Shown: piece by piece, positions 15,316 through 36,813 of the stretch
How the letters are laid out: the number at the start of each line of letters is the position of its first letter
How positions within the stretch are numbered: the stretch's first letter is position 1
Source of the DNA: an uncultured virus (IMG/VR IMGVR_UViG_3300027728_000010)
Lineage: Duplodnaviria; Heunggongvirae; Uroviricota; Caudoviricetes
Virus record (IMG/VR): IMGVR_UViG_3300027728_000010
Reading direction: 5' to 3' (one strand)
Length of the DNA stretch: 64,000 nucleotides
Position numbers and translations under genes: made by a program
Notes under the pieces: generated by a model
Databases searched by the model: none
Told to the model about the DNA's origin: nothing
The model's input: the letters and a program-made list of their open reading frames with translations, nothing else

Positions 15316-15355
15316 CTAATTTATAAATTATTTTCATAACAATATATTTATTATT

Positions 15356-16643: not shown

Positions 16644-16679
16644 AAAATTTAACCCCATCTTTTCATGTGGGGTTTTTTA

Positions 16680-17096: not shown

Positions 17097-17192
17097 TCTA
17101 TTTGTATTATTTTTACAAATATATACATAAAAATCAAACTAAAAAATTATTTAAAGTTTTTTTGATTTTAAAAATTTTTGTATCTTTGTGTT

Positions 17193-17690: not shown

Positions 17691-17705
17691 ACTATTCAGT
17701 GATTC

Positions 17706-18191
17706 TTAATAGTTATTATTTTTAACTCTTTCTCTACCACTTGAAGCCGATAGTTCTCCACCAATAACACTTACTAAACTAGCAGCAATTAAGGCTGCTT
17801 GAAGGACTTCTTCGCCAGACATTTCACCCATAGTCGCTCCAATTATTGCCCCCAATGTGCCAAAAATACCATAGTTCATTAATTTTCTTTTGAGATATTG
17901 GTTTCTTGTTATTTCTTTTTTTCCACTAGAGTCACCGTAATCATAATATTTATATGATTCGTTTACATTTGAATCCATCGCCGATTCTATTTCTTTAGCA
18001 ATTTTGGGGTTCTTTTTAAAAAACGCAACTAACTCTTGAAATTCATCAATTTTTTCTAAATCCATTTTCAAAAAATTAGATTCAAGGTCCATTTCTTGAG
18101 AAGAAGAAATCCAATCTTCTTCATTTTCTTTGATAACTCGTCTAACAATACGAGCCAAATCGTTTTCAGTAAGTCTTATAATTCTTTTCAT
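17706..18191 (-). CDS. membrane protein with IIRLTENDL leader
   Basis: leader motif plus two C-terminal hydrophobic segments. Confidence 0.7.
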   Translation of the reverse strand: MKRIIRLTENDLARIVRRVIKENEEDWISSSQEMDLESNFLKMDLEKIDEFQELVAFFKKNPKIAKEIESAMDSNVNESYKYYDYGDSSGKKEITRNQYLKRKLMNYGIFGTLGAIIGATMGEMSGEEVLQAALIAASLVSVIGGELSASSGRERVKNNNY

Positions 18192-18288
18192 AATTTTTAT
18201 TTATAAATACTTGTTAAATTAAAAAAAGATTACTATATTTGTAAAGGATTTGAAACTTTTTAGAAACAACGATATATTTATAACGAAA

Positions 18289-18396
18289 ATGGAAAATACA
18301 CTCAGACATATGGTCATTTGTAACAAGCCGAGCAATCAGTGGTCGTTTAGCTATATTACGATTAATCAGTCGAGGGTAGTTTCACTTATGAGTTAA
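18289..18396 (+). CDS. putative attenuator leader peptide (35 aa)
   Basis: MENTLRHMVICNKPSNQWSFSYITINQSRVVSLMS; promoter motifs upstream, terminator downstream. Confidence 0.6.
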   Translation: MENTLRHMVICNKPSNQWSFSYITINQSRVVSLMS

Positions 18397-18426
18397 AAAC
18401 GTTTAACAACATAATAAAAGGAATGT

Positions 18427-18458
18427 AAAACCCGAGACTTAAAATCTCGGGTTTTTTT
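18427..18458 (+). terminator. intrinsic terminator (putative attenuator) before tRNA operon
   Basis: AAAACCCGAGA-cttaaaa-TCTCGGGTTTTTTT. Confidence 0.85.
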
Positions 18459-18472
18459 ATTCCCAAAAATTT

Positions 18473-18545
18473 GGTTCCTTAGTATAGTTTGGTAATACCC
18501 CGGCTTTGTAACCCGGAGTCGTCAGTTCGAACCTGACAGGAACCT
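18473..18545 (+). tRNA. tRNA-Thr(UGU)
   Basis: cloverleaf, loop TTTGTAA, C-C mismatch at base of anticodon stem. Confidence 0.85.
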
Positions 18546-18581
18546 CAAAAGAAAAAGTTCTTTGAAATATTGGCTTTATTT

Positions 18582-18652
18582 TGTTCCCTCGTCTAATGGA
18601 AGGACACGCGGTTTTGGTCCGTGGAATTGGGGTTCGAGTCCATGGGGAACAA
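18582..18652 (+). tRNA. tRNA-Gln(UUG)
   Basis: loop TTTTGGT; acceptor TGTTCCC/GGGAACA. Confidence 0.85.
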
Positions 18653-18658
18653 CAATAA

Positions 18659-18744
18659 GGAGAGATGGTAGAGTTGGTTTATTGCACCGGTCTTGAAAAC
18701 CGGAGAACTTCACGGTTCCGCGGGTTCGAATCCCGCTCTCTCCT
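18659..18744 (+). tRNA. tRNA-Ser(UGA)
   Basis: long variable arm, loop CTTGAAA. Confidence 0.92.
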
Positions 18745-18814
18745 CGAATCAATACAGAATGAATGATACGAATCCTCAAAGTTCGAAAGGAGTCAGGGTA
18801 TTGATTTTTTAACT

Positions 18815-18887
18815 AGGGTAGTTGACTAATTGGTAAGTCACCACGTTTGGGACGTGGACGATGTCGGTTCGAGTCCGGTCTACCCTA
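18815..18887 (+). tRNA. tRNA-Pro(UGG)
   Basis: loop TTTGGGA. Confidence 0.9.
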
Positions 18888-18959
18888 CTATAAATAAATA
18901 AACAAATAAAAAACAAGTATCATGGAAAGTGACAAGTATGACAAGAGTCGTAAATAGAA

Positions 18960-19030
18960 TCCCTCGAAGCTTTAAAGTGAAGCTTTCCGCTTTTAACGGA
19001 AAGAAGTCGGAGCGTTACCGTCCGGGGGAA
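18960..19030 (+). tRNA. tRNA-Lys(UUU), atypical T-loop AGCGTTA
   Basis: loop CTTTTAA; acceptor TCCCTCG/CGGGGGA. Confidence 0.8.
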
Positions 19031-19093
19031 CAAATTTTAAGTATTTTTTAAGTTTTATGTGTTTTTTAGGTTCGACTTGATATTTATTAATAA

Positions 19094-19726
19094 ATGGGAA
19101 TTATGAAAAATTGTATTAAATGTCAAAAAGAGTTTGAACCAAAAAAAGGTTTGATTAGTTATTGTTCTTTAATGTGCCGTAATAGTAGGGTGTGGTCAGA
19201 AAAAGATAAGGAAAAAAAATCTAAATCAAACAAAAATTCTGAAAAAGTTAAAGAAGCAAATAGAAAAAGACCTGATGGTTTTTGGAACCAAATCGCGGAA
19301 AAAAGAAAAGAAAACGATAAGATAAAAATTATCAATTCAAAATATGAAGATTTAAAATTCGAATCACTAAAAAAAAGGATTTACTATGAACAAGATGGTT
19401 CATGTAATAAATGTGAATTAAAAACTTGGATGGGGGTTGAAATTCCATTAGAGTTAGAACATAAGGACGGAAATCACTTTAATAACCAAAGAGAAAATTT
19501 AGAGTTACTTTGCCCAAATTGTCACGCATTGACTGACACATGGAGGGGTAGAAATAAAACAAAACAACTTAGAAATAAAATTTCAGATGAAAAACTTTTA
19601 AATGTCTTATTAATACATAATTGGAATATGAGACAAGCATTAATAGAAGTTGGTTTAGCGGCTAAAGGGGGAAATTATAATAGATGTCACAAGTTAAAAA
19701 AAGAATACCAAAATTTGAAGGATTAA
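19094..19726 (+). mobile_element. free-standing HNH homing endonuclease in tRNA cluster
   Basis: CNKC...PLELEHKDGNHFNNQRENLELLCPNCH. Confidence 0.88.
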
Positions 19727-19792
19727 AAATTTAGTAAAACTGAGCGATTTATACCAAAAAATGGTTATATTCGTAAAGAAAAACTAAAATAA

Positions 19793-19866
19793 GCACTCTT
19801 AGCTCAGTTGGTAGTAGCGGTTGTCTTACATACAACAGGTCACAGGTTCGAATCCTGTAGGGTGTA
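19793..19866 (+). tRNA. tRNA-Val(UAC)
   Basis: loop CTTACAT. Confidence 0.9.
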
Positions 19867-19928
19867 CGAGGAGACCGTTACTAATTCATAGTCCTTATGT
19901 GACGACGGAATCATAGAATTAGATTTTT

Positions 19929-20009
19929 GGGAGAGTTGAGCAATTGGTTGGCTCAGCAGACTGTAAATCTGTCGCGAAAGCCTTGGGGGTTCGAGTCCCT
20001 TCTCTCCCA
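19929..20009 (+). tRNA. tRNA-Tyr(GUA)
   Basis: loop CTGTAAA, variable arm. Confidence 0.9.
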
Positions 20010-20020
20010 CGAGTGAAAAA

Positions 20021-20114
20021 TGTCGGTTCGAGTCCGTCAGTAGTTTAAGTAGGTAAAACAACCCGGTAGGGTGATGGGGGTTCGAGTCCTCCCTTAGTGT
20101 AATTAGGTAACACG
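20021..20114 (+). pseudogene. tandem tRNA fragments (T-arm/D-arm/short hairpin/T-arm/D-arm)
   Basis: two GGTTCGAGTCC T-arms and two D-arm-like hairpins, no anticodon loop or paired acceptor. Confidence 0.5.
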
Positions 20115-20124
20115 TTCAAGTATT

Positions 20125-20202
20125 GGACCAGAAGCTTAAGTGGTTATAAGCTTTCGCCTGTTAAGCGAGGGATAGTAGGTTCGAGCCCTACCTGACCCGC
20201 CA
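20125..20202 (+). tRNA. tRNA-Asn(GUU)
   Basis: loop CTGTTAA, encoded CCA, two acceptor mismatches. Confidence 0.8.
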
Positions 20203-20361
20203 AAGATACAATGTTGGGTTCCCCAGTGGTAACGTCTCGAGTAAGTAGACCACAAGAATCTAGTAAGAAGTGACAGATGGGTTCATCACGACTAAAGTAT
20301 CGACCACCGAGACGCTGGCGAGCTGAGGGGGTGGTTAAGAAATACTCCTAAATACGCACCA

Positions 20362-20438
20362 CGGCACATATACCCTCCGCCTGATACGCGGTTGAAAGGT
20401 TAATTGGTTTCATGTAGGTTCAATTCCTACTGTGCCGA
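20362..20438 (+). tRNA. atypical tRNA-Ile(GAU)-like RNA lacking a D-arm
   Basis: acceptor CGGCACA/TGTGCCG, anticodon arm CCGC-CTGATAC-GCGG, T-arm GTAGG-TTCAATT-CCTAC. Confidence 0.6.
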
Positions 20439-20495
20439 CAAAGAGGAGTAACTTGCGTAGGAGCCTTGGGGAACTGCAGTCCCACTACGCTCTTT

Positions 20496-20579
20496 GGAAG
20501 ATAAACCCTGATGGGGATGGGGTCCGCCTGCTAAGCGAGATGTACCTTCGGGTATTTGGTTCGATTCCAATGTCTTCCA
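20496..20579 (+). tRNA. tRNA-Ser(GCU)
   Basis: loop CTGCTAA, variable arm TACC-TTCG-GGTA. Confidence 0.8.
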
Positions 20580-20602
20580 CAAATAATTAAAAAGGAGGTA
20601 AA

Positions 20603-21058
20603 ATGAACCGAGTATTTAGAAAGGTTGACGGAGACGCAATTCCTGATATTGTAAAACACACTATAGATGTTCTTCAAGAATGTCCATATGCTGAAATACA
20701 TATTGGAACTGACTCTCAAAACCACAGAAGAAGTACGGTGTATGTAACGGCAATTGCTTATAGATACGGAAACCGTGGAGTTCACTACATTTATCATAAA
20801 CAAAAAGTTAAAAAGATACGTGATAAGTGGACAAGATTATGGAATGAAGCCGATTATTCAATCGAAGTTGCAAATTGGTTAACAGGTAAAATTAAAGTTC
20901 AAGTACAAATTGACCTTGATTACAACTACCAAGAAAAACACTTTAGTTCAAAGTTGGTTGGACCTGCTGTTGGTTGGATTAACTCTTTGGGTTATAAGGC
21001 AAATATTAAACCTAATAACCAAATTGCAACAAGAGCGGCAGATTTTCATTGTCGTTAA
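20603..21058 (+). CDS. RNase H-like YkuK (DUF458) family protein
   Basis: IHIGTDSQ, RLWNEA..SIEVA, IDLDYN, ATRAAD motifs. Confidence 0.85.
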   Translation: MNRVFRKVDGDAIPDIVKHTIDVLQECPYAEIHIGTDSQNHRRSTVYVTAIAYRYGNRGVHYIYHKQKVKKIRDKWTRLWNEADYSIEVANWLTGKIKVQVQIDLDYNYQEKHFSSKLVGPAVGWINSLGYKANIKPNNQIATRAADFHCR

Positions 21059-21063
21059 TATAT

Positions 21064-21136
21064 GAGAGGTTGTCCGAGCGGCGTTAGGTCTGTGGTTGCA
21101 ACCCACAGTACGGGGGTTCGAGTCCCTCACCTCTCT
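21064..21136 (+). tRNA. tRNA-Cys(GCA)
   Basis: loop TTGCAAC. Confidence 0.9.
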
Positions 21137-21145
21137 CAATAAAAT

Positions 21146-21227
21146 GCCCTCGTGGTGGAATGCAGACACATCCGGTTTAGACCCGGATTCCGTTAAAGGA
21201 GTGAGAGTTCGAGTCTCTCCGAGGGTA
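21146..21227 (+). tRNA. tRNA-Leu(UAG)
   Basis: loop TTTAGAC, variable arm. Confidence 0.9.
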
Positions 21228-21287
21228 CAAAAAATTCAATATATAATTTTATCTATACATCGATATATTTATAAATAAAAATTAATT

Positions 21288-21620
21288 ATGAAAAAAATTA
21301 TAAGACTTACAGAATCTGAACTAACTAATATCATTAAACGAGTTATTAAAGAATCTGGTTTTAGAGCAAGATTTAAAAATCAAAAAGATAATCGTTGGGT
21401 TGATGAAAAGGATAATTGGGTTACTTATGACCCCGATTTAGAAAATCACGGATATTATGATTTTGAATATGAACCATACAACGATGTGGATGAATTTGAA
21501 GATATACCTGAAGACATCAGAGAAAAATTGTTTGGACATAAAACGGGTAGAGAATTCTTTGATACCTATAAAAAACGAGATGGTGGGTTCCAATACTCAA
21601 GAAAAAAAGAGGGGTTTTAA
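21288..21620 (+). CDS. hypothetical protein with IIRLTESEL leader
   Basis: leader motif; TATTTATA upstream. Confidence 0.75.
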   Translation: MKKIIRLTESELTNIIKRVIKESGFRARFKNQKDNRWVDEKDNWVTYDPDLENHGYYDFEYEPYNDVDEFEDIPEDIREKLFGHKTGREFFDTYKKRDGGFQYSRKKEGF

Positions 21621-21689
21621 GTTATAATTAAAAAATCTTAGATACAATTTTTTTCTATATAACAATATATTTATAAATAAAAATTAATT

Positions 21690-22007
21690 ATGAGAAATAG
21701 ATTAACTGAAAGAGATTTATCACGTATTGTTAGACGTGTAATCAAAGAAGACAAAAACGATAGAAGGGAAATCAATAGTATTCTTGACGATATATTTGCA
21801 ACTTTCGAATTTTCTGAAAAAGGAAACGACGAAATGATTACATTGGCTAAGTTTATTGTTGAAAAACCAAATGAGGTTGCAAGTTCAATTATGGCAAGAC
21901 TTAAAAAAGGTTATGGTGCTCGTGAGGAAGATGATACTTTTGGAACCTATACAACAAGGGGAGATGAATTAAGAGACTTGGAAGATAGATTAGGTCGAAG
22001 AATGTAA
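21690..22007 (+). CDS. hypothetical protein with RLTERDL leader
   Basis: leader motif; upstream region near-identical to that of 21288. Confidence 0.75.
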   Translation: MRNRLTERDLSRIVRRVIKEDKNDRREINSILDDIFATFEFSEKGNDEMITLAKFIVEKPNEVASSIMARLKKGYGAREEDDTFGTYTTRGDELRDLEDRLGRRM

Positions 22008-22129
22008 TAAAAAAATTAATATGAACGTGACCCCTCTCCAAAAAAGAGGGGTTTTTTGTTTTAAAATATTTTACAAAGTATTTGGCCAATTGAAATGAAG
22101 TCCATATATTTGTAGAAACAATAAAACAT

Positions 22130-22468
22130 ATGGGGACTTACATTTACACTTACAAGAAAAAATTAGATAAAAAAGCAATTCTTAATGGACAAGAAGTTAA
22201 GGTTGGTGAAGCTACTTTTTTATGTAAACAAGATTGGTCAGGAAATTACACATCACAAGAAAAACGTGAAATGACAAGAGCCACATGTTTACTTGAGCAA
22301 GACCAACCCGACTACATTACATTTGGTGAAGAAGTTTATAAAAATAATAAACGTGGTCTTTGGAGTGATGGTAGTGGTTTTTGGACAGGAATTGACCACA
22401 AAAACGACTATGTTGGAAAGTTAGAAAAAATTGGTAGAAAATATTTTATAAAGTGTTTGGTAAATTAA
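22130..22468 (+). CDS. hypothetical protein
   Basis: 112-aa ORF after TATATTTG. Confidence 0.7.
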   Translation: MGTYIYTYKKKLDKKAILNGQEVKVGEATFLCKQDWSGNYTSQEKREMTRATCLLEQDQPDYITFGEEVYKNNKRGLWSDGSGFWTGIDHKNDYVGKLEKIGRKYFIKCLVN

Positions 22469-22667
22469 AATAAAGTTCTTATATTTGTAAAACAAACGGG
22501 GGTGATAAAATGTGATGGTGGAATCACCCCCACACGAGAGGGAAAAAGTTCTTTGATTTAAAATATTGTGGTGGTAAGCAAGGGGAAACTCGTAAAGTTC
22601 ATTAACCAGTTGGCTCAAGATGGTGAAACGAGAGTGTGAGTCAACTACTAAATCACAAAAAAAATAT

Positions 22668-22765
22668 AGTCAGGTGGCGGAATGGTAGACGCACCCGAAA
22701 GGTAGGTAACGGTATGAAGCCCGATTAAATAATCCTAAATACAGGTTCGAATCCTGTCCTGACTA
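22668..22765 (+). ncRNA. tRNA-like RNA with intact acceptor, D and T arms but no canonical anticodon arm
   Basis: AGTCAGG/CCTGACT acceptor, GGCGGAATGGTAGACGC D-arm, ACAGG-TTCGAAT-CCTGT. Confidence 0.65.
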
Positions 22766-22774
22766 CAAATAATT

Positions 22775-22849
22775 GGTGTGGTAGCTCAGTAGGTAGAGCA
22801 AAGGAACGGAAAATCCTTGTGCCGGTGGTTCGATTCCACTCCCATACCA
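22775..22849 (+). tRNA. tRNA-Phe(GAA)-like with 8-nt anticodon loop
   Basis: stem AAGGA/TCCTT typical of Phe; loop ACGGAAAA. Confidence 0.65.
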
Positions 22850-22856
22850 CAAATAT

Positions 22857-22939
22857 CGCGGGATAGTAAGTAGTTGGTAGCTGGCGAGGCTCATAACCTC
22901 GTGTCTTTGACCCCGGTGGTTCGAGCCCACCTCCCGCAA
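22857..22939 (+). tRNA. tRNA-Met(CAU), initiator-like
   Basis: CGCGGG 5' end with C1:A72 mismatch; loop CTCATAA; elongated variable region. Confidence 0.8.
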
Positions 22940-22950
22940 AACAATCGTAG

Positions 22951-23679
22951 TTAATCCACCTCCACGTGGTGATTGTTGGAAACAGGTAATGCTGGCTGAG
23001 TGATTAACAAACGTTCATTGACAATATTGGTTATAATATCAAGGTATTTTTTTGATGTTGAGGGTTTAACGTATTTTTGTTCGGAAACATCAATAATACA
23101 TAGGTCTATTTTTAAGTCGTGACAAAGTTTAGTTTTAGATTTATCGTTTTCCTGAATTTTATTTAATTTATCTATACCATAGATAGGTTCATAATGAAAG
23201 ATACCGTTGAGTTCTACAGCAAAATTGATAGTAGGGAAATAAATGTCCAATTCAGAACCGATAGTATCTTTTTTATTAAAATCTATCGGTAGTTCTGGAT
23301 AAATAACTTTTAATTGGTTCTCCAACCAAATCTCAAGTTTAGAACGTCGATTTCCGTGTGTTTTCTTTCTATTATTAAAAGTGGTAGAACACGACTTAGA
23401 ACAGAAAAAATTACCTGAATTGTTCTTTTTATTTGAGGATTCTAATCTCTCAAATTCAAGGTCACAATTCTTACATTTTATGATGTTATGTAAAACTTTA
23501 CGTGAATTATAGTAACATTCATCAGAACAATAAATGTGACGATTACGGTTATTTTTTAATTCAAAGGTTATTAGTTTTTTTTCAACACCAAAAGATTTTT
23601 TACATTGTAAACATTCACAAAGTAATTTATTGGTTGATTTTGTATTGTTATATTCTTCTTCGGTAAATAGTGTTTTCAT
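22951..23679 (-). mobile_element. putative homing endonuclease (Zn-finger repeats + Vsr/DUF559-like nuclease)
   Basis: CxxC/FCSxxC repeats; SKLE...ELDIYFP..FAVELNGIFHY...DKSK. Confidence 0.8.
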
Positions 23680-23767
23680 AATGTAAGGTGTATATCTATA
23701 AATATCTTGGTTTCGTTAAAAACTATGTTTTCTAAACCTTTTTTACGAAACTTTTTATTAAATTTAT

Positions 23768-23841
23768 ACTGATGTATCTCAATTGGTGAGAGCAGGACGC
23801 TTATATCGTCAAGGCTATGGGTTCAAGTCCCTTCATCAGTA
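23768..23841 (+). tRNA. tRNA-Ile(UAU)
   Basis: loop CTTATAT; acceptor ACTGATG/CATCAGT. Confidence 0.8.
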
Positions 23842-24056
23842 CGGGAGTGTCGACAGTAGAGTTCTACTTGAGAAAGAGGTAACACGCACTTAAAACGGGG
23901 GTTACAAAATAGTCAAGTCGTTTATAAAGTTTTGGTTGATAAAAACTTTCGTTTTATGGAGATGGTTTAATGTGAAAAACCTTCACCCGTGATGTTAGTA
24001 GGATTGGCCTCCTCATTCACGTAAATGTGACACCGACCCCAAAGGATGTCACAAAT

Positions 24057-24129
24057 GCGGAAGTAGCTCAATTGGTAGAGCTCCTGCCTTCCAAGCAGGT
24101 TGTTGAGAGTTCGAGTCTCTTCTTCCGCT
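24057..24129 (+). tRNA. tRNA-Gly(UCC)
   Basis: loop CTTCCAA. Confidence 0.92.
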
Positions 24130-24215
24130 CGAAAGATGAGTTTCCCTACATCCGGGGTTAGTGAGAAACTTAAAGGGGGACAAGTGGTATACAAGTCCAC
24201 GACTCATCTTAATTT

Positions 24216-24287
24216 GGCCCATTCGTCTAAAAGTAAGGACATTTGGTTTTCATCCAAAAAATCTCGGAGCGTTACCGGGATGGGCTA
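24216..24287 (+). tRNA. tRNA-Glu(UUC), atypical T-loop AGCGTTA
   Basis: loop TTTTCAT. Confidence 0.82.
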
Positions 24288-24312
24288 CAAACCTGTTGAA
24301 ATAAAACAGGAA

Positions 24313-24395
24313 GGTCAGGAGTGTAAAGAGACATGGTGTTGAATCCGTCTGTTAAAGATGGTTGCTCATTGTAGGTTCGAATCCTATCCTGACTT
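24313..24395 (+). ncRNA. tRNA-like RNA with aberrant central arm
   Basis: GGTCAGG/CCTGACT acceptor and GTAGG-TTCGAAT-CCTAT T-arm; no 7-nt anticodon loop. Confidence 0.55.
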
Positions 24396-24507
24396 CACAA
24401 GTGCTCACCACGCTACCCATCAGAACAGCGCCCCAGGGTGAGTTAGTGTAAACGCTTAATAGAACGAAGGCCAAGTTCAGAGCAGGGAGCGGGTCCTGCA
24501 AACATTT

Positions 24508-24581
24508 GGTCCATTGGTGTAATAGTAACATTTGTCCCTGTCACGGACAAGCCCTCGGAGCGTAACCGGGATGGACCGCCA
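24508..24581 (+). tRNA. tRNA-Asp(GUC), atypical T-loop AGCGTAA
   Basis: loop CTGTCAC, encoded CCA. Confidence 0.85.
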
Positions 24582-24602
24582 AACTTATTAAAATTAAAAA
24601 CT

Positions 24603-24875
24603 ATGAAAACATTTGAAGATTTAGAATTTGAACAATTAAATGACGCGCCATATATGGTTGGTAAAAAGTCTCGTATGCATTTTGACAACGGATTTGGTGT
24701 ATCTGTTGTTTCACACACTCATTCATACGGAGGTCGTTCCGGTCTTTATGAAGTGGCAGTATTGGACTCTGATGGTAATCTTACTTACGAGACTCCTGTG
24801 ACAAGTGACGTAATTGGTTACTTGAGTGAAGAAGATGTGACTGATGTTATGAAACAAGTTCAAGAATTGAAATGA
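24603..24875 (+). CDS. conserved phage protein (FDNGFGVSVV...GLYEVAVL)
   Basis: 90-aa ORF. Confidence 0.75.
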   Translation: MKTFEDLEFEQLNDAPYMVGKKSRMHFDNGFGVSVVSHTHSYGGRSGLYEVAVLDSDGNLTYETPVTSDVIGYLSEEDVTDVMKQVQELK

Positions 24876-25153
24876 TGAAAAATAAACACAAAAAAGCTAT
24901 TGATAAAATTATGGATTGGTTTGACTTTTCCAAAGTTCACCAAACTATGGTTGCTTTAGAATGGAAATGGGCATCTGCAGAAGATGGAATCCCAACTGAA
25001 CCAGAAATAAGGGAAATGGCGAGAAAACTAATGGAAGACTCTATTAATCAAAAAGTTAGTATTGGAACAGGAGGGTTTAGAGTTCATTATGATAAAAAAG
25101 ATGATATGATTACTTTATCATTTGTTATTTCAGAATGGTATGAAACTTTTTAA
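24872..25153 (+). CDS. hypothetical protein
   Basis: 93-aa ORF. Confidence 0.7.
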   Translation: MMKNKHKKAIDKIMDWFDFSKVHQTMVALEWKWASAEDGIPTEPEIREMARKLMEDSINQKVSIGTGGFRVHYDKKDDMITLSFVISEWYETF

Positions 25154-25347
25154 TTAATTATATGAAAAAATATTTACACACATTTTTGGGAGTTATTACA
25201 ACTCTATTTGGGGCATTTTGTTTGGTTTCTTTTATGAATGAAACTTTTAGTTGGGTATCAATCTTATATCTATTAGGTTCAGTTATTTTTCTTGGACCTG
25301 CAGTTGATTCTTGGACTCAAGTATATAAAAACTTTATCTAATTTTTT

Positions 25348-25421
25348 GGTCTTATAGCTCAGTTGGTTAGAGCGCCGGTCTCATAAACCGTAGGTCCTTG
25401 GTTCGAACCCAAGTTGGACCA
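25348..25421 (+). tRNA. tRNA-CAU (elongator Met or lysidine Ile2)
   Basis: loop CTCATAA. Confidence 0.85.
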
Positions 25422-27160: not shown

Positions 27161-30131
27161 ATGAAACTAATAAAAAGATTGGGTAAAAAAATTTGGGTAA
27201 AATTCCAAATATCGATGAGAGACGGCATTCTTTCAAAAAAAACTGAAAATATTGATGCTTACGAACAAAAGGCAATGTCAATTTTTAGAAAAATGTTAAG
27301 ACATCCTGAATCCAAGTTTACAATAGCTCCTGTTTCTGGTAAAAAATATATTGTGAATAAACCTTTAGGAATATTCATTATGATTGATGGTTCTTTTTTA
27401 GAAATTACAAATCACATATATCACTACGAAATAAAATTAAAATATAATAATGCAATGAGACTTATTAGGTTATTTAATTCAAGAGTTGAGGAAGATGCTA
27501 TTTCATATGAAAAAGAAATAAAATCAAATATACAAATGTCATTAGATACCATCTTAACAAAAGTTACATCCAAAAAATGAAAGAATATGAAATATACGAA
27601 AGATTAATTATTGTCACTACCAGTATTAGAATTCATAGTTTTATTGGTTTTACTTGTCTTTCGTCTTTTGTTTTTGAAAATATTATGTTATTATTAGGTT
27701 ACGTACATTTTGATGTATTCTATGTTATGTCTTCAATATTTTTAACACTTGGATTTTTTGAAAACAAAAAATTATTTCAAGATTATGTTAAAGAATATGA
27801 TGATTTACAAGAAAAATTAAAAAATTTATTTGACAAGTAATGAAAAAATATATAATAATTGCAACAATGGCTTTAATATTAGAGGTTGGGTCAACTTTTT
27901 ATATCAGTTATGTGTCTGATAAAAATTTATTTGGGATGATAATATTTGCATCAATTGGACCTTTTTTGGGTCTACCATTTGTTGGGTATATGGTTGAAAG
28001 TAAAACTTGGTTAGAAAGATTTAAAATGGCTCTATCATCATCAATTGGATATTTAATTGGTTCAATAATTACTTATTTTATGATTACAAAATATAATATA
28101 TACTAAAATGAAAAAAGTTATTTACCTATCAGTTTTAATTTTGTTAGCGTCTTGCGAAACAAATGATTACAAATACAAAATAAAAGGAAAAGTTTATATA
28201 CCAACATCAGGATTAAATCCAATGCATGACGCTGTTTGGTATGCGGACTCAATTACTTTTAGAAACGACACTATTGTTTATAAAAACAGTGATGGTAGTG
28301 AAGTTAAAATAAACCCCCCATATAAAATTTACAAATTAAAATGAGTGAAATAAAAAAGATTTTACACGGACAATTAATGTCAGAACATAGACGTTTGACA
28401 AATGAAATTTCAGACATTAAAGCGCAAAGTTTTGAACTAAATGAAGAAGAAATTAAAAGAGTTCAAATGTTAGAAATGCAAGTAAAAAAAATTGCAGAGC
28501 AGTTATACACCCTTTATGAAAGTTAGTAATTAAATTTATGAAATTTGACAAAAGAATATTGGAATTAAGTAAAACCATCTATCAAACCTCCGTTATGTGT
28601 CATAATGACAAAGGTAATCCAACCAAACAGATTGACAAAATCAGGGGAATGATACGTGAGTTTATTAAACTTGAAGTTGTTCCCTATGAATTAACTGAAA
28701 GCGAAAAAACAACATTCATTGTTGAAAATGAATTAAAAATTACTTCTGCCGTTATGAAAGGACATAAGGCATGTGATAATGATGAGTTTGTAGAAATTAG
28801 AAAAAAAATTGAAAAATACAGAAAAGATTTAGGATTAATATGAGTGAAGATAGAATACCGTACTTACCAAAAGAAAACTTTGAATATGAAGACCAACAAC
28901 TTTGGGACAATACTTTAAGAGATGGTCTTGAAGAATTTGAAGTATCAGAAACAATTCAAAAAATAAGAAATTATTATAATGGTCATCACAACATTGATGG
29001 AAGACCACCATCAAAAAAAGATTTCAACGAGTACCTTGATTCATTAGAAAAAAATTTGTAATTTTGATATTATGGGAAAAATAATAATAGAATTTGATTC
29101 TGCGGAAGAATCACAAGATGCAAGAGTTGCATTAGATGGTTACAAATGGAAACTTGCCATGTGGGATTTGGACCAAAAATTAAGGTCAACTGTAAAACAC
29201 GGACAAAAATTTAGTGGAACCGGTGATGCGTCCAGTGAAGAAATAGACGTTTGTGACAAATTAAGAGAAGAAATAAGAAGTATTTTGGATGAGTATAGTT
29301 TAAATTTAAATGATTAAAAAGAGTAAGATGACAGCAGTAGAGTGGTTGGTTGAGCAGATATGCGGAGACCACACAAGTGAATGGCAGAAACAAATAGAAC
29401 AAGCAAAAGAAATGGAGAAGCAACAAAGCCATGCAGAATATATGCGAGGGTGGAAGGATGGACTAACTAAACAAGAAACCTTTAATGCTAAAGAGAAATG
29501 AAAACATTAATAAACATAGTGATTGTACTTGCCTTATTAACGCAAGTATCTCACGCAACTTATGTATTTAATGCAATAGCACAAAACACTAACTCCACTT
29601 TTACTCAAATTATATCTTGGGTTTTTGCATTAAGTCTAGAAACATCAATATTTATTTTTACAATGTTTTCTAGAAAAAAAACAGCAACAATGTTTGCTGT
29701 TATTTCAACTTTAATAAATATACTTTATTACTGGTACTCTCCAAAATGGTCATTAGAATTTGTAGGGATGTTAATAATAAGTCCTATTATTCCTTTAACC
29801 ATATGGAATTACTCTGAACTATTAAAATCTTTAGAAAGAAAAGTAGGAAGACCTAGAAAGGATTAAGTATTAACCTTTAAATCAGAATAAGATGACAGAA
29901 AGAGAAATACAATTACTTGGTTTTGAAAAAAACTATATGGATGAAGATGATGATTACTATTACTTTTTGGATATTGCTAGTGGTTTAGGTTTTATATCTT
30001 GCTCAGGGTTTGAAGGACAAAACAACGGTTGGTATGTTAACGTCTTTAACACAGAACCATCAATTAGATTTACAAGTTTTGGTGAATTACAGGGATTGAT
30101 TAATAAACTTACAAACGCAATAGTAAAATGA
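27161..30131 (+). CDS. run of ~11 short hypothetical/membrane ORFs
   Basis: tightly packed co-directional ORFs in the track (27161-27580 through 29892-30131). Confidence 0.6.
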
Positions 30132-30373
30132 GTGATTTTAATAGGACATATCCTAAACCTGGTGAAAAATACCAACACTATAAGGGTGGTCAATACGAAG
30201 TTATTTGTATGTGTAATCACACAGACACAAATGAACCACTTGTGATTTATAAATCAATTTCTTTTGGCTCACAATATGCGAGACCATTTTCTGAGTGGTT
30301 TAATGAGGTTAAACCTCGTATAATTGGTGATAAAGTGTACCCGATGAAAAGATTTGAAAAAATAGAAGAATAA
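30128..30373 (+). CDS. DUF1653 family protein
   Basis: YQHYKGGQYEV...E.LVIY...ARP..W. Confidence 0.85.
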   Translation: MSDFNRTYPKPGEKYQHYKGGQYEVICMCNHTDTNEPLVIYKSISFGSQYARPFSEWFNEVKPRIIGDKVYPMKRFEKIEE

Positions 30374-30690
30374 TGAATAAATTAGATTTAGATTATCAAA
30401 ATTTGCTCCAAGACATTTTAGATAATGGAATTGAAAAGAAAGACCGAACAGGTACAGGAACCAAATCAATATTTGGTTATACCATTCGTCATAATATGAG
30501 TGAGGGATTTCCTGTACTTACAACCAAGAAAATGTATTTCAAAGGAATTGTAACAGAATTGTTATGGTTCTTACGTGGTGATACATCAATAGAGTATCTA
30601 CTCAAAAACGATTGTAATATATGGACGGGTGACGCATATCAAGCATACTTGAAGGAATGTGAAAAGTTAAAAAAAGATGAAGAAAAATAA
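30373..30690 (+). CDS. thyA: thymidylate synthase, N-terminal fragment
   Basis: DRTGTGT, FPVLTTKK, ELLWFLRG, NIW; ends in TAA. Confidence 0.92.
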   Translation: MNKLDLDYQNLLQDILDNGIEKKDRTGTGTKSIFGYTIRHNMSEGFPVLTTKKMYFKGIVTELLWFLRGDTSIEYLLKNDCNIWTGDAYQAYLKECEKLKKDEEK

Positions 30691-30734
30691 TGACTTTTGT
30701 TGGTTTTTAGATATTTATTATAAAAGAAACCAAA

Positions 30735-31706
30735 ATGTGTCTAAAAAATAAAATTGAAACAACACTGTGTGTGTTAAAAAATGGTGAATATAAAATATTA
30801 TCTCAAAAATTGAGGGTTATTAATACATTATTTATTAATGAGATTGTTAATTATACCAAATTTTTAGATGAATATAATCCTAAATTAGTTGATAGGGTAA
30901 GATATATCTTAAAATCTAAAGATAGTATTAATACGTGTATTCATTGTAGTAAACCTATAATTGATTTAAATAAAATGTTTTGTTCCACTAAGTGTAATAA
31001 TAATTCTGAACAAACAAAAAATAAATTTAGAGAGAATTATCAAAATTTATCTGAAACGGAAAAAATAGTAAGAAATGACAAAAGAACTAAAACTGTTAAT
31101 CAAAAATACGGTGGGTATACTTTACAAAGTCCTGAACTAAAAAAGAAAATGAAATCAACTATGATTCAAAAATATGGTGTTGAACATTCTTTTCATAGTG
31201 ACACGATAAAACAAAAAGCGTTAAATACTTGGATTAAAAAGTATGGAGTAGATAACCCATTCAAATCTAGTAATATAAAAGAGAAAATAAAACAAGTATT
31301 AAAAGATAGGTATGGTGTTGATAATTCAGCTAATGTTAATCCAGAAATTAGAGTTAATAAAGGTATTAAAACAAAAATTGAAAGGGGGTGGATAATACCT
31401 GATGAGTTTTTATCGGATTACCAAATTTACAGAAAAAAAGTTAAACGATTAACTGAAACAACATATAAAACATATAAAAATATTATAAACCCAAATAATT
31501 TAGAAAGAGTTACGAATGGAAAAAATGGGTATCAGTTAGACCACAAATATTCAATAATTGAAGGATTTTTGAATAATGTAGAACCAAAAATTATTAGTCA
31601 TCACCGTAATCTACAAATGATAGAATGGGGTAGTAATAGAGCTAAAAGTAAAAGATGTGATATTGATTTAGAACAATTAAAAAATGAAATAAAAAGTTAT
31701 GAATAA
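30735..31706 (+). mobile_element. HNH homing endonuclease splitting thyA
   Basis: KYGVxN repeats; C-terminal LDHKYS...RNLQMI...NRAK. Confidence 0.85.
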
Positions 31707-32451
31707 AGAACATTTACATTCGGAAGGGAGACCTTACACAAAAGAAGAATTTGTTGAAAAAATTAAAACTGATAAAAAGTTTGCTGAGAGATTTGGAAAT
31801 CTTGGAAAAATCTATGGGTATCAATGGCGTAATTGGAATGGAGAAATTGACCAAATATCAGATTTGATTAAACAACTCAAAGAGAGCCCTGATAGTCGTA
31901 GATTACTTGTTTCAGCGTGGAACCCATCAGATTTACCACACCAAGTTCTACCACCTTGTCATTATGGATTTCAAGTTTATACAAGAGAGTTGAGTTTAGA
32001 AGAAAGATTAGAGTTAGCATTAAAAACTTATGATGTGTTTGACCCATTAGATTTTGGCATTCCAGCCAAAGTAGACCACGATGAAATTGATAAAATGTAT
32101 CCTGTTCCCAAACGAGCAATCTCTTTAATGTATAATGCCAGAAGCCAAGATGTTCCACTCGGAACACCATTTAATTTAGCATCTTATGGATTACTTCTAA
32201 TGATATTAGCAAAAGAGGTTAATATGGTTCCTGATGAGTTGATTGCAAATATGGGTGATTGTCATATCTATATGAATCAAATTGATGGTGTGAAAGAACA
32301 ATTAACAAGAGAACCATTTGAGTTACCAACTCTTAATCCGTTCCCAACTTATGAAGGGTCAAGACCATCCATAGAATCTTATACTATTGGTGATTTTACA
32401 CTTAAAAATTACAAATCACACCCAAGTATAAAAATGCCACTTTCTAATTAA
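31699..32451 (+). CDS. thyA: thymidylate synthase, C-terminal fragment
   Basis: LGKIYGYQWR, SRRLLVSAWNP, catalytic LPPCH, RSQDVPLGTPFN, GDCHIY. Confidence 0.92.
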   Translation: MNKEHLHSEGRPYTKEEFVEKIKTDKKFAERFGNLGKIYGYQWRNWNGEIDQISDLIKQLKESPDSRRLLVSAWNPSDLPHQVLPPCHYGFQVYTRELSLEERLELALKTYDVFDPLDFGIPAKVDHDEIDKMYPVPKRAISLMYNARSQDVPLGTPFNLASYGLLLMILAKEVNMVPDELIANMGDCHIYMNQIDGVKEQLTREPFELPTLNPFPTYEGSRPSIESYTIGDFTLKNYKSHPSIKMPLSN

Positions 32452-32600
32452 ATTATGAAAAAAGAAAAAAAGTTAATTACTATCGATTTAAGTAATTGTA
32501 AAAATTGGAACGAATGTCAAAAAGTTATTGAGATGGTATATTCGGGTAAAATTAAAATAAATGTCACAACAATCAAAGCGCCTTTATCAAATTAAAAATT

Positions 32601-33308
32601 ATGAACCAACAAAACAATTGGAATGACCCACAATTATCAGATGGAGATTTTCCACAAGAAAACAAAACAAAATTCCAAGTAGGAGACAAAGCAGTTAAAG
32701 TAAAGGGATATAAATTTCCTTGCACCATCGTATCAGTATTTCAAACCGTAGAAGGAAATGTTCGAGTAGTTGGTGAAATGGATGAATACGGACTTCTTCA
32801 CATCTTTAATGAAGACCAATTAGAAAAGGCATGAAGTTTATAAAATACCTTCTACTATGGATTTCTGGTAATCTTTCCATACCATTTTGGATGGTTGGGC
32901 ATGTTCATCTTACAATGAACGTTTATGAGGATATACATGAGATTATTGCGTCATCGTTAATGAATATATTAGTAGCCATAGGGTTTTATGTTAGTTGGAT
33001 AGATTATAAAAAAGAAAATAAATAAAAAAATGAAAGAAAAAGAAATTAAAACAGAAAAAGTAGAAAAGAAAAAAGTTTATCGTAGACCCAAAAAAGTTGT
33101 TGAAGAAACTAAAGTTAAAGATGATGAGATTCTTGATATGTACACAAGAGCCGGAGAAGTTTATCAGAATGTTATAAAAACCCCAAAACAAGTTGGATAT
33201 TACAGAATAGGAAAAAGCTTTAATATTTTCTTTGAAAAAAAACCATGTGGTCTTCACAGATTTTTTACCAAGGTCTTATTAGGTTGGAATTGGTTTGACC
33301 AAAAATAA
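32601..33308 (+). CDS. three short hypothetical ORFs (32601-32834, 32831-33025, 33030-33308)
   Basis: ORF track, co-directional. Confidence 0.6.
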
Positions 33309-33309
33309 A

Positions 33310-33334
33310 AAACCCCTCGTTTAAGAGGGGGTTT
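33310..33334. terminator. bidirectional terminator
   Basis: AAACCCCTC-gtttaa-GAGGGGGTTT between convergent genes. Confidence 0.75.
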
Positions 33335-33338
33335 AAAA

Positions 33339-34175
33339 TTATTTAAGTAGGTTGTAATACTCTTTGAAGTGTTTAATCCTATCAGATAAACCCAAAGTCC
33401 CACCATTAACTCTTTTTGTGACTGATGTAACCGTAGCATCATCCGCTCCCTTATCACAAATTGCCCATAACTTATTAGAGTCAAAGAAGAACGCAGCAGA
33501 TGCCAATGGATATTTGGTTGCAACTAAATCAGGATTTGAAACACAATCTTCACCAATAAATTGAGTAAACTTTGTGTAGTTTGCTTTACCAGTTAATTGA
33601 ATGTAACCTCTACCTCTGAACTTATAACCTTCTTTTGATGCTTCATCACCATTACCCATTCTATTTCCGTAAACACGAGATGCAATTTTTTCAGGTTGTT
33701 TAGCATAAGATTCATTTAAGTTTCCTGGAAAATACTTACCAAAGATTTTTTTCAAACCATCTGCAGAATAATTTAAATTTTCACTAACTGCTTTAAATCC
33801 ACCTGACTCGTGACCACATTGTGATAAAAAGTGAGCCAATCTTAAATTATTTGTGATGTTAAATTTCTTTGCGGTATCAGGAATTTGTGCAAGAACTACA
33901 TCAGGAATATGACCCTTTAATTTTTCAATGTTTAATGGACCCCCTGATGGAATAACAACATCTTCTTTAATTACCTTGGCTGTCGGTTCAGATTTACCAA
34001 AAAGTTTAGCCCAAGTCGCATCCCCAACGATACCATCATCTTTTAAACCATTTGCTTTTTGCCAAGCTTTAACGGCTGCTTCAGTTTTTGGACCAAATGT
34101 CCCTATGGCTTCTACGCCTAATTTTTCTTGGAGTTTTTTTACTTCGTCTCCTTTCGAACCATTCTTTAGTATCAT
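33339..34175 (-). CDS. endolysin: peptidoglycan-binding domain + GH19 lysozyme
   Basis: GDEVKKLQ..FGPKTEAAVKAWQ..DGIVG; AHFLSQCGHES, FRGRGYIQLTG, TKRVNGG. Confidence 0.93.
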   Translation of the reverse strand: MILKNGSKGDEVKKLQEKLGVEAIGTFGPKTEAAVKAWQKANGLKDDGIVGDATWAKLFGKSEPTAKVIKEDVVIPSGGPLNIEKLKGHIPDVVLAQIPDTAKKFNITNNLRLAHFLSQCGHESGGFKAVSENLNYSADGLKKIFGKYFPGNLNESYAKQPEKIASRVYGNRMGNGDEASKEGYKFRGRGYIQLTGKANYTKFTQFIGEDCVSNPDLVATKYPLASAAFFFDSNKLWAICDKGADDATVTSVTKRVNGGTLGLSDRIKHFKEYYNLLK

Positions 34176-34285: not shown

Positions 34286-34885
34286 ATGAAGTACACAAGA
34301 GAACAGGTTGAAGCCACCTTAAAGGCTAAAGGATATGTTTACTTTGAAGATGCAAACGCCAAAGGATTTGATGTAAACATTATTGGTATTAGAAACTCTG
34401 ATACTGGTCAAAAAGTTACAAATGCTTTTGATGACTTACTTACTTTAAGTTATAAAGATGAAACAGGTGTTTGGAAATATCACGAATGGCCGGCAACTAC
34501 AGACCCAGGTAAAAAAGGTGTAATGGAATACCATAACGCTAAAGGGGTTGCAAGATTAGTTGAAGGACAATATAGAGGTTCACACACAATCGGATTACAT
34601 CAAGGTAAGTATGAAGCTTTAAGACAACAAAAGAACGTAAAAGTTTATCGTGATGCAAATCGTGATTTAAGTTATGATGAAAACAAAATGGATGAAGGTC
34701 TTTTTGGAATTAACATTCACAAAGCAGGTGCTGACTCAACATATGTTGAAAACTGGTCTGAGGGATGTCAAGTTTTTAAAAGAAGTAAAGATTTTGAAGA
34801 ATTTATGAAAATATGTAGAAAGGCTCGTGAAAAACATGGGAACTCTTTCACTTATACATTAATTGAAAGTAGCGACATAAAATAA
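34286..34885 (+). CDS. putative L,D-transpeptidase/YkuD-like cell-wall enzyme
   Basis: GINIHKAG...WSEGCQV (H...SxGC). Confidence 0.6.
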   Translation: MKYTREQVEATLKAKGYVYFEDANAKGFDVNIIGIRNSDTGQKVTNAFDDLLTLSYKDETGVWKYHEWPATTDPGKKGVMEYHNAKGVARLVEGQYRGSHTIGLHQGKYEALRQQKNVKVYRDANRDLSYDENKMDEGLFGINIHKAGADSTYVENWSEGCQVFKRSKDFEEFMKICRKAREKHGNSFTYTLIESSDIK

Positions 34886-34902: not shown

Positions 34903-36813
34903 ATGAAAATTATCTTTAACCTAACCTTAACCCTTTTATTATTATTACCATTTATTGGTTTTTCACAAGTAGTTCCCCAAGCACCATCAAATGGTATTTG
35001 GGGACTAATTGACACTCAGTATCAAGTTGGTACAACAGCTCAAGGAACAACACAAGCAAAAATAACTTTACAAAACACTACCGTTACAAAATATGCTGGT
35101 ACACAATTTAGAGTTTTTTATGACAACGTTGCTTTTACAAATGCTACCGTTTCTTTAATTGGTTCAACAACAAACTTAGATTTACAATATGTAACAAATA
35201 CTGCAAATGGTTTTATTACTATTACTTTAGTTTATACGGGACCAAGTTCAACTTACACTTTAGCAAATGGTGAAAGATTTTTAATCACTTTTACTCACGC
35301 AGCTCCTGCAGTGTTTAATAACTTAGCTGCGATATCCCCATTAACGTGGACAGGAGCACAAGTGTTTCCATCATATACAGCAAAACAAGATGGTATGGAT
35401 ACCACGTTTAATGTACATAACTATGGAGGTAACTTTATATTCCAAAACTTTCAATATGCAGGGACATTTACAAACGTAACAGGTTCACCGGCTAAATATC
35501 TTCCATTGGCTCTTCAAAGAAGACCACAAACTGGAGGTTCTTGGGTTCAACACTCGGCATATACTACCGACATTAATGGAAACTTTTCAATATCAGTACC
35601 ATTGGATACAACATATTGGGATGTTAGATTAGCAATCCAAGGAGACACTATGGGTGTTGGTAATGTTGTTTCATCAACAGATGCACAACAAGTTAACCAA
35701 TGGGTGTTAGGTAATGGTACTATGACAGGATTTGATTATTACACTTCTGATGTAAACAATTCAGGAAACATTACAATTTCAGATGTATGGGGTGTATTTG
35801 GTAGAGTATCGGGTAGATTTACAGATTGGCCAAATAACGTACAAGATGTTAAATTCTTTACGGCTTCTGAATATTCAACAATTAACGGGTCTAACACAAA
35901 CTACACACAATCAATACAAGGTGTAACAAACTTTACTTTTGATATAGTTGCAGGTCAACCATCTACTGTTACTTTCTATGTAATGGTTCCAGGTGATGCT
36001 AACGGTACAGGTTACCACATGGCTCGTGTAACACCTATTGAAGTATTAGTAGGACCTATACCTGGTTTACAATCACAAATTTATAATGTGATTGATACTA
36101 AAGTTGAGTACGATTTCCCAACATCAACAATAGAAGTAAATGTTCCAAACATTACTGTTGAAGCAGGAAACTTGGTAAACTTACCTGTAAAAGTTTATAC
36201 AAACGGACAGGAATTATCATCATTACAATTTGGATTAAAATATGACACAGACCTTTTAGAATTCAAAGGGATTTATTCCACATCAAATACTATGGAATGG
36301 ATTACATATGTTAATCCTAATGATGGACAAGTTGATTGGGGTGGGTTTGATATTACAAATAACGAACAAACATTAAAAAATGGTGATGAGGTTGTAACTC
36401 TTCAGTTTATTGCAAAACAACCACAAAATCTTTGGGAAGATAGTCCATTATACACTTCTTTAAAGTTTGCGGGAAATAACGAAGCTAAAGATTTAACAAT
36501 CACACCAACAAATGGAATTCTTCAAGTATTGAAAAGTAATATTGGTGAATTGAATGGTAATGTAATATCTGTATATCCTAATCCGGTAACAACAGATGTG
36601 ACAATCACATTTGAAGTAAAAGAAACGACAAATGCAAATCTTTCAGTATACGACATGGTTGGTAGAAAGTTAGTTACAATTTTGGACACACAAATACCAA
36701 ACGGACAATATACTTACAATGAAAATTTAGGACAATTAGAGCCTGGAGTTTACATAGTGACTTTAAACGTTGAAAATGAAACTCCAAAATTTGAAAAAAT
36801 TGTAAAACAATAA
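34903..36813 (+). CDS. secreted protein with cohesin- and dockerin-like domains and T9SS C-terminal sorting domain
   Basis: signal peptide; DVNNSGNITISD; LSSLQFGLKYDTDLLEF; ISVYPNP...YDMVGR...PGVYIV...KIVKQ. Confidence 0.85.
   Translation: MKIIFNLTLTLLLLLPFIGFSQVVPQAPSNGIWGLIDTQYQVGTTAQGTTQAKITLQNTTVTKYAGTQFRVFYDNVAFTNATVSLIGSTTNLDLQYVTNTANGFITITLVYTGPSSTYTLANGERFLITFTHAAPAVFNNLAAISPLTWTGAQVFPSYTAKQDGMDTTFNVHNYGGNFIFQNFQYAGTFTNVTGSPAKYLPLALQRRPQTGGSWVQHSAYTTDINGNFSISVPLDTTYWDVRLAIQGDTMGVGNVVSSTDAQQVNQWVLGNGTMTGFDYYTSDVNNSGNITISDVWGVFGRVSGRFTDWPNNVQDVKFFTASEYSTINGSNTNYTQSIQGVTNFTFDIVAGQPSTVTFYVMVPGDANGTGYHMARVTPIEVLVGPIPGLQSQIYNVIDTKVEYDFPTSTIEVNVPNITVEAGNLVNLPVKVYTNGQELSSLQFGLKYDTDLLEFKGIYSTSNTMEWITYVNPNDGQVDWGGFDITNNEQTLKNGDEVVTLQFIAKQPQNLWEDSPLYTSLKFAGNNEAKDLTITPTNGILQVLKSNIGELNGNVISVYPNPVTTDVTITFEVKETTNANLSVYDMVGRKLVTILDTQIPNGQYTYNENLGQLEPGVYIVTLNVENETPKFEKIVKQ

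Follow-up and report, generated by a model that had tools for sequence, protein, structure and literature searches.

The closest described counterpart of the locus treated here is nrdA of Aeromonas phage Aeh1, a gene for an essential nucleotide enzyme that is split by a free-standing HNH endonuclease gene (nrdA-a/mobE/nrdA-b) with neither an intron nor an intein, in which the endonuclease gene overlaps the downstream half and the newly created ends carry conserved tails (PMC3045599). Without these tails the enzyme is inactive, although its fragments still bind each other (Crona et al., PMC3045599). Similar traits are described for MobA, associated with the T4-type topoisomerase genes 39/60, whose splits always retain tails and for which tails, endonuclease exchange, endonuclease loss and secondary fusion have all been reported (bioRxiv 2022.08.31.505936). 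The gene considered here is a thymidylate synthase (TS) gene, thyA, in a 64,000-nucleotide (nt) stretch of DNA from an uncultured virus of the class Caudoviricetes (IMG/VR record IMGVR_UViG_3300027728_000010), referred to in full as the window. In it, thyA consists of two open reading frames (ORFs), thyA-N and thyA-C, separated by the gene of a likely HNH endonuclease. As judged from comparative sequence evidence, this split is real, recurrent and probably functional, and the enzyme is probably rebuilt from two or, in some relatives, three chains without RNA or protein splicing.

The initial annotation of the window, made from its letters, had invoked Aeh1 nrdA/mobE as the precedent, and the comparison is apt; every feature of that kind of system that could be examined agrees. 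The two systems differ in that the Aeh1 tails have no database match and are oppositely charged, whereas those of thyA derive from the small domain of the enzyme itself, one half each, and are close to neutral; activity was shown for Aeh1 and is predicted here; and the host in the present case is ThyA, in which endonucleases of five classes, insertion at three sites and genes in three pieces are found. MobA resembles the thyA system in its mobile C- and N-terminal extensions, in the replacement of its endonuclease (VSR, GIY-YIG) or its loss with the tails kept, in its secondary fusions and in its repeated insertion into close intact alleles, but it combines a single site with translational bypass, whereas thyA shows no bypass and reuses one tail pair at several sites (bioRxiv 10.1101/2022.08.31.505936). 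Fractured genes with split inteins share the order half, endonuclease, half, the downstream overlap, a hairpin with a promoter motif and the occasional loss of the endonuclease (Dassa et al., PMC2677866); their ends, however, splice, whereas in thyA a non-catalytic helical pair stays on the chains. Finally, the group I intron of T4 td with I-TevI also places a homing endonuclease inside a phage TS gene, although td is restored by RNA splicing (PMC2988022), and the small-domain TS of L. casei (1lca) and E. faecalis (3uwl), to whose residues 121-139 the start of thyA-C aligns, are single chains. Thymidylate is not mentioned in the available text of the MobA paper, tables aside, which might list other split hosts, and ThyA is not mentioned in the parts of PMC2677866 consulted. 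An intron-less and intein-less split thyA was not found described in the literature searched, a scope that left out supplements and most subscription papers; within it, the ThyA host, the tails derived from a host domain, the use of one pair at three sites and the three-piece genes appear to be new.

The split locus and its relatives

The elements of the locus, all on the plus strand, are as follows.

30373-30690: thyA-N, the N-terminal half, 105 amino acids (aa) with stop codon TAA; PF00303 positions 2-90 (E 5.6e-30) and phrog_160
30628-30690: tail of thyA-N (residues 86-105), the first small-domain helix, longer in split alleles
30691-30734: spacer of 44 nt, 100% identical in three related loci (L238, L280, L082)
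30700-30733: predicted hairpin, in which 30700-30708 pairs with 30725-30733, bracketing the promoter motif and covering the endonuclease start region
30711-30718: ATATTTAT, a candidate phage promoter that would drive the endonuclease gene and thyA-C
30735-31706: putative endonuclease ORF, 323 aa; DUF7487 (E 2e-15) and phrog_3339 (E 3e-16)
31699-32451: thyA-C, the C-terminal half, which starts at an ATG of its own and has 250 aa; PF00303 positions 77-265 (E 1.9e-59)
31699-31797: head of thyA-C (residues 1-33), a split-specific HxxGxP turn and the last two small-domain helices
31957-31959: codon of the catalytic Cys87 of thyA-C
30598-31800: approximate mobile unit (tail, spacer, endonuclease and head), from the identity profile against L238

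The host reading frame is thus represented by separately initiated ORFs in the original order. Together they span the 266-position PF00303 profile and contain the catalytic Cys as well as the motifs for dUMP and folate, and thyA-N aligns with residues ~1-97 of solved TS. The ORF coordinates reproduce what had been claimed of the layout, namely a thyA-N stop at 30690, a 44-nt gap and an insert whose stop overlaps the ATG of thyA-C, the overlap being 8 nt. Scored with a matrix built from 100 other starts, the start context of thyA-C ranks above 69 of these starts and above 355 of 358 internal ATGs; the A(-3) start rule of Bacteroidetes (PMC6847099) was not used, as the thyA-C start has a G at -3. 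The break had been placed in a variable insertion of the protein, and it does fall in the hypervariable small-domain insertion, which spans 37-86 aa across intact alleles (n=84). Upstream of the locus, a DUF1653 gene (30128-30373) shares one base of its stop codon with the ATG of thyA-N, an arrangement suggestive of translational coupling.

An assembly error can be rejected, as a contig of run X9, possibly the source sample, covers 30540-31978 with zero differences. Contigs of two further runs, X11 (30621-31056) and X12 (31296-31795), span the left and right junctions, respectively. At least half of the sampled words are present in 12 runs, all of them lake-water metagenomes and 10 of them possible sources.

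Split thyA is common in related freshwater phages. A scan of 168 viral loci plus the window, duplicates included, yielded 124 intact, 35 split and 10 incomplete thyA genes. A DNA pattern made from the head motif matched 63 viral, at least 120 metagenome and 7 GTDB loci, the latter with zero thyA halves, and in GenBank phages the head matched a single uncultured record only. Of 217 head matches listed, 204 run into thyA, whereas the remaining 13 comprise 11 chance-like matches, one ended by a contig edge and one remnant. Among the matches listed, 82 distinct cassettes can be distinguished, which occupy three positions in the gene: site 1, that of the window (46 cassettes), site 2, after YGxxWRxW (34), and site 3, between AWN and the catalytic PPCH (2). 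The low count for site 3 stems from the pattern itself, because HxxGxP is missing from most site-3 heads, and two further scans placed 16 of 33 tail matches and 25 of 46 head matches at this site. A 34-aa product, P0257, has a head-like start joined directly to a later ThyA strand motif and may represent a fourth site or a deletion.

The endonuclease itself is exchangeable and can be lost, to judge from the cassettes. Site 1 harbours the window-like class A (10 cassettes), a NUMOD1 class (21) whose members start GIY-YIG-like, a label from motif inspection, two GIY-YIG classes (10 and 3), one HNH cassette and one with no endonuclease. In all, 5 of the 82 cassettes are free of endonuclease; in two of these, the start codon follows the stop codon after only 47 nt (L202) and 77 nt (L247). 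Where it could be compared, the endonuclease gene overlaps the downstream half in 48 of 78 cassettes, the others lying mostly within 14 nt. More than one ORF occurs in the insert of 21 cassettes, one of these being a frameshifted endonuclease, and up to three extra genes are carried inside cassettes; 13 representatives of this non-nuclease cargo had no match in a Pfam scan. The same small cargo genes recur at sites 2 and 3, both in cassettes that have an endonuclease and in others that lack one (L239, L244, L285, L288, L298, L368, L378, L388). In L097 (4360-5074) a class-B endonuclease is frameshifted while the thyA halves are still open.

Selection, splicing and recoding

The claim that both halves keep their motifs extends to the relatives. 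All 66 complete final halves retain PCH, RSxD, the Asn and HxY, and among the N-terminal halves TTK/TSK and ELxW are kept in 70 of 70 and the first Arg motif in 68 of 70; the Arg-Arg pair is kept in 60 of 62. The pooled ratio of non-synonymous to synonymous polymorphism (pN/pS), which is computed from non-independent pairs, is 0.25 and 0.28 in the core blocks, the latter being the C core block, 0.23 in the site-1 tail, 0.28 in the site-1 head, 0.35 in the site-2 tail and 0.09 in the site-2 head. Variation in the tails and heads is therefore mostly synonymous, and the site-2 head, which lies outside the catalytic core, is more tightly constrained than the C core block (0.09 vs 0.28). In five of five long related records no strong TS match other than the split pair is present, and none of the five contains ThyX; in one of them, the complete 308-kb genome G002, split thyA is the sole TS. 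A weak second PF00303 match, with E about 1e-4 and below the cut-off, lies at G001:174618-174803 and at G005:91353-91538, within a 262-aa frame.

It is very improbable that split thyA is defunct or expendable, a relic in phages that use the TS of their host. This explanation is favoured by truncated remnants (L217/L389, L385/L421, L429) and by many mini-proteins without a catalytic core, both of which indicate that thyA can be lost in this group; it is opposed by the four catalytic motifs in 66 of 66 final halves, by the core pN/pS of 0.25-0.28, by the strong start context of thyA-C and by the uninterrupted state of both ORFs in the window. In L217/L389 and L429, tail and/or head stubs flank unrelated genes and the thyA body is gone. 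The mini-proteins form a large family of stand-alone proteins of 110-215 aa that consist of the ThyA small domain and the third ThyA insertion (for example P0196, P0198, P0211, P0236 and P0269, as well as L179 and L219, where they lie upstream of thyA-N). A pattern search for them in the loci returned zero, yet two were present there on direct inspection. L385/L421 holds a split version of such a mini-protein, with a broken endonuclease between the pieces.

Three mechanisms might restore a single message or a single chain. The first is an unrecognised self-splicing intron that overlaps the endonuclease ORF or includes the tail and head. thyA is a classic host of group I introns (PMC2988022), and intron cores can overlap endonuclease ORFs (PMC2677866). 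Still, the absence of an intron that had been claimed was borne out by a covariance search with Rfam, which found no group I or II intron at E<=10 in 29500-33500, none at the gathering score in the whole window and none in 11 related loci. Moreover, the inserts of the five endonuclease classes have no 9-mer in common, their shared 8-mers being A-rich runs and the promoter motif, and inserts of 47 and 77 nt leave no room for a ribozyme. The mostly synonymous variation of the ends and the presence of up to three extra genes per cassette point the same way, as do contigs from one RNA run that cross the junction of stop and spacer with no skip, a weak observation because they may be DNA. The RNA run X24, which is polyA-selected, contributed three short pieces, may hold DNA and is no evidence of expression. 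An intron is accordingly hard to credit.

The second mechanism, protein trans-splicing by an atypical split intein made of tail and head, is just as hard to credit. The layout of half, endonuclease, overlapping half and hairpin is that of the fractured genes with split inteins (PMC2677866), whereas no intein profile matched at E<=0.1, in keeping with the initial annotation; furthermore, the two ends add up to ~50 aa and show homology to the small domain of TS, the residue that follows the invariant His varies (S, P, E, V), and natural fusions retain the tail and head in frame. The third, in which the ribosome skips the gap or reads through the stop to make one chain, in the manner of T4 gene 60, has a probability close to nil. 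Its appeal lies in the shared frame of the two halves in the window and in the fact that bypass cassettes travel with MobA (bioRxiv 2022.08.31.505936). Against it, the gap contains 35 stops within 336 intervening codons, and its 1008 nt with that number of stops is unlike the short gap of fixed length that is hopped in gene 60. Across cassettes, gap length varies, frame offsets of 0, 1 and 2 and the stops TAA, TAG and TGA all occur, and C-terminal halves start at a Met no more than 12 residues from the head in 191 of 204 matches. A ThyA of two polypeptides, as originally proposed, hence stays the best reading, and the comparative data oppose splicing, read-through and decay as the rule.

The tail/head module, the endonuclease and mobility

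Beyond what the initial annotation had proposed, comparison of the loci indicates that the ends created by the split make up a conserved helical module in two halves, which moves together with the endonuclease and recurs at two further sites of thyA. In terms of the small domain known from L. casei and E. faecalis TS, the tail is equivalent to its first helix and the head to its final two. The 28 distinct site-1 tails share an invariant Y and an invariant E and are collinear with the native first helix. Among site-1 heads (n=44), L6, H7, G10, P12, E16, E17, F18, K23, F28 and G33 are invariant, and head residues 15-33 align with the small-domain end of E. faecalis, S. aureus-type and L. casei TS chains; HxxGxP, by comparison, is found in none of 91 intact alleles. 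Sites 2 and 3 carry a second, split copy of the module that is collinear with native small domains, and in L247 the copy lies within a ThyA that has no native small domain. All 33 tail matches sit in thyA or thyA remnants, and no other host of the module was found in searches that used thyA-derived patterns.

The combination of sites gives rise to three-piece genes, in which the middle piece is bounded by a head and a tail. Sites 1 and 2 are combined in L227, the first piece of which contains two N bases in the assembly, and, as an independent case, in P0127, sites 1 and 3 in L290, and sites 2 and 3 in L243 and L245. In-frame fusions of tail and head with differing junctions are found in L234, L325, L328/L335, P0157 and P0170; they may be ancestral or derived. 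The junctions of L328/L335, L234 and L325 match short A-rich sequences shared by tails and head starts, which would fit a microhomology-mediated deletion. A fused site-2 module is predicted to fold alone as three helices, with a predicted local distance difference test score (pLDDT) of 83 and a predicted template modelling score (pTM) of 0.64, in a model that leaned on the native small-domain alignment. With the 50-aa module model, VIA gave unrelated chains (best Z 3.0), and Foldseek gave E. faecalis TS the highest TM-score (0.56) of 14 rows, but at an E of 6.1.

The insert of the window comprises a Zn-ribbon, DUF7487 repeats and a C-terminal HNH-like domain, and its match to phrog_3339, annotated as 'homing endonuclease', spans residues 33-237. 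No variation at D269, H270, N292 and N301 occurs in an alignment of 30 homologs, picked from the best 120 of 955. The pLDDT of the insert model is 88; its top VIA row is the Gme HNH nickase, a weak match (Z 5.1, root-mean-square deviation 3.2, 66 residues aligned), and Foldseek returned nothing at E<=0.001, with Cas9 in the top rows at E>=0.12. Thus, the earlier designation as an HNH endonuclease is upheld as likely by the invariant (D)H...N...N motif and the weak fold match, whereas a Pfam scan of the insert gave no HNH match and only DUF7487 above the cut-off. Both its nuclease activity and its presumed target, intact thyA, are predicted; for cutting of alleles that lack the cassette, the identity profile and the tree scatter described below are indirect pointers.

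Control of the endonuclease may reside in its leader. A TATTTAT-type motif had been noted in the spacer, and ATATTTAT at 30711 indeed recurs upstream of genes in the window, 12 of its 30 matches lying no more than 80 nt upstream of a same-strand gene start, as against ~6.5% expected; it is the sole 8-mer not resembling poly-A that is common to the inserts of the five endonuclease classes and presumably acts as a promoter. The 3' end of the hairpin lies one base before the endonuclease ATG. Its predicted stability is -10.6 kcal/mol (z -1.64), and 11 of 200 shuffles were equally good. Leaders with z<-1.5 were obtained for 9 of 9 class-A, 19 of 26 class-E and 10 of 31 cassettes of other classes, compared with 1 of 11 control genes, and the median z is -3.1 for class A, -2.8 for class E and about -1.2 for classes B, C and D. 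Pairing of the start region within the hairpin was rejected as a discriminator, because 8 of 11 control genes also passed; the folding z-score alone discriminated, and for classes A and E only. A hairpin and promoter motif upstream of the endonuclease recall the control of Aeh1 mobE (PMC2988022, PMC2677866).

The boundaries of the mobile unit emerge from the comparison of the window with L238. DNA identity is 98-100% in the tail, spacer, endonuclease and head, 72-80% in thyA-N 1-75, and 94, 88, 51, 75 and 59% in successive parts of thyA-C, with flanks at 51% and 57%. On a FastTree phylogeny of the region from PPCH onward (149 rows, 162 columns), the split and intact states require 42 changes, against a shuffled mean of 48.2 (21 of 500 shuffles were as low); starred branches force at least 17 changes, and the 8 class-A rows need 7. 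Identity profile and tree scatter together fit homing with co-conversion of both ends.

As for its wider context, the window resembles a large tailed phage, with 16 transfer RNAs (tRNAs), a GOLLD RNA and endolysins. The GOLLD RNA (12379-12789; 314 bits) lies upstream of the tRNA cluster (15243-25421), which contains two further HNH/homing-endonuclease-like ORFs (19094-19726, plus strand; 22951-23679, minus strand). An inverted repeat with a T run at ~33302-33338 is terminator-like, three ORFs are endolysin-like (33339-34175, minus; 34286-34885, plus; 58959-59774, plus), and an ORF at 34903-36813 encodes a secreted-looking product of 636 aa without a PHROG match, the C-terminus of which may resemble a type IX secretion tail of Bacteroidota. 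The nearest cultured thyA-N sequences are those of the Flavobacterium phages vB_FspM_immuto (71-74%), where thyA is one intact ORF of 423 aa; on this basis, the host may be guessed to be a member of the Bacteroidota.

Proposed joining of the halves in trans

The explanation favoured, with moderate confidence, is that the two chains of ThyA fold together in each subunit and that the tail, paired with the head, rebuilds the small domain in trans, thereby joining the halves. A homing cassette consisting of tail, promoter and hairpin, endonuclease and head would have replaced the hypervariable small-domain loop. The halves would then be translated from one region, thyA-C either through translational coupling with the stop of the endonuclease gene or by way of the promoter within the cassette, and the tail helix of thyA-N would contact the head helices of thyA-C, holding the halves and setting their register in an active enzyme. 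In a co-infection, the endonuclease would nick or cut an intact thyA, and repair would copy the whole cassette, including tail and head. Because the tail/head pair would fold as its own unit, a copy of the module could have carried endonucleases into two further thyA loops. Of this picture, the structure of the gene, its recurrence, the replacement and loss of the endonuclease, the constraint on the protein, the limits of the mobile unit and the homology of the module are observed, whereas expression, assembly, enzyme activity, nuclease action and target, and the contact of tail and head are predicted.

Several points weigh against this explanation. Given that the tails of Aeh1 NrdA are dispensable for fragment binding (PMC3045599), conserved ends need not act as glue, and since the site-1 tail and head are largely native structure, their conservation alone is no proof of a joining role. 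The charges of tail and head (net -1 and +1) do not complement each other, most site-3 heads have no HxxGxP, and the decayed copies mentioned above keep pieces of the module without a whole thyA. To these may be added the non-independence of the pairs behind the pN/pS values and the tree scatter, which could also stem from general recombination, the tree being a FastTree of 162 columns.

The main competing explanation draws on the first two of these points. It holds that the two-chain enzyme assembles through its catalytic core, with tail and head only stabilising the ends, aiding dimer formation or ligand binding, or hitch-hiking as flanks that are co-converted. In addition to the Aeh1 precedent, it accounts for site-1 helices that are native parts of the small domain and for site-3 heads that have mostly lost HxxGxP. 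It is considered less likely, as the copies at sites 2 and 3 are additions to the fold and yet persist on both ends after the endonuclease has been lost (L247, L239, L244, L298, L378), as these extra copies are more tightly constrained than the core block, and as 33 of 33 tail matches lie in thyA or its remnants.

A broader proposal can be made, although tentatively and with less than even confidence. The tail/head pair would be a self-sufficient, non-splicing counterpart of a split intein, a host-derived domain of ~50 residues divided in two, that serves as a portable joint for unrelated endonucleases in any exposed loop, even beside the catalytic Cys. Versions from the three sites would be sufficiently divergent to pair selectively, giving a TS of three and perhaps four chains, and the pair could join unrelated split proteins.

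Crona et al. proposed that, next to splicing of RNA and of protein, tails borne by the element offer a third general means of surviving insertion into an essential gene, but expected such tails to be target-specific and hard to detect (PMC3045599). thyA provides a traceable case: the tails originate from the small domain of the split enzyme itself, a single pair is used at three sites and with five classes of endonuclease, and the consequences, namely endonuclease loss, cargo genes, three-piece genes and in-frame fusions, can be followed as well. Standard annotation would call such loci broken thyA genes. As ThyA has a simple genetic selection, the idea is directly testable, and the tail/head pair may prove to be a small natural protein joint.

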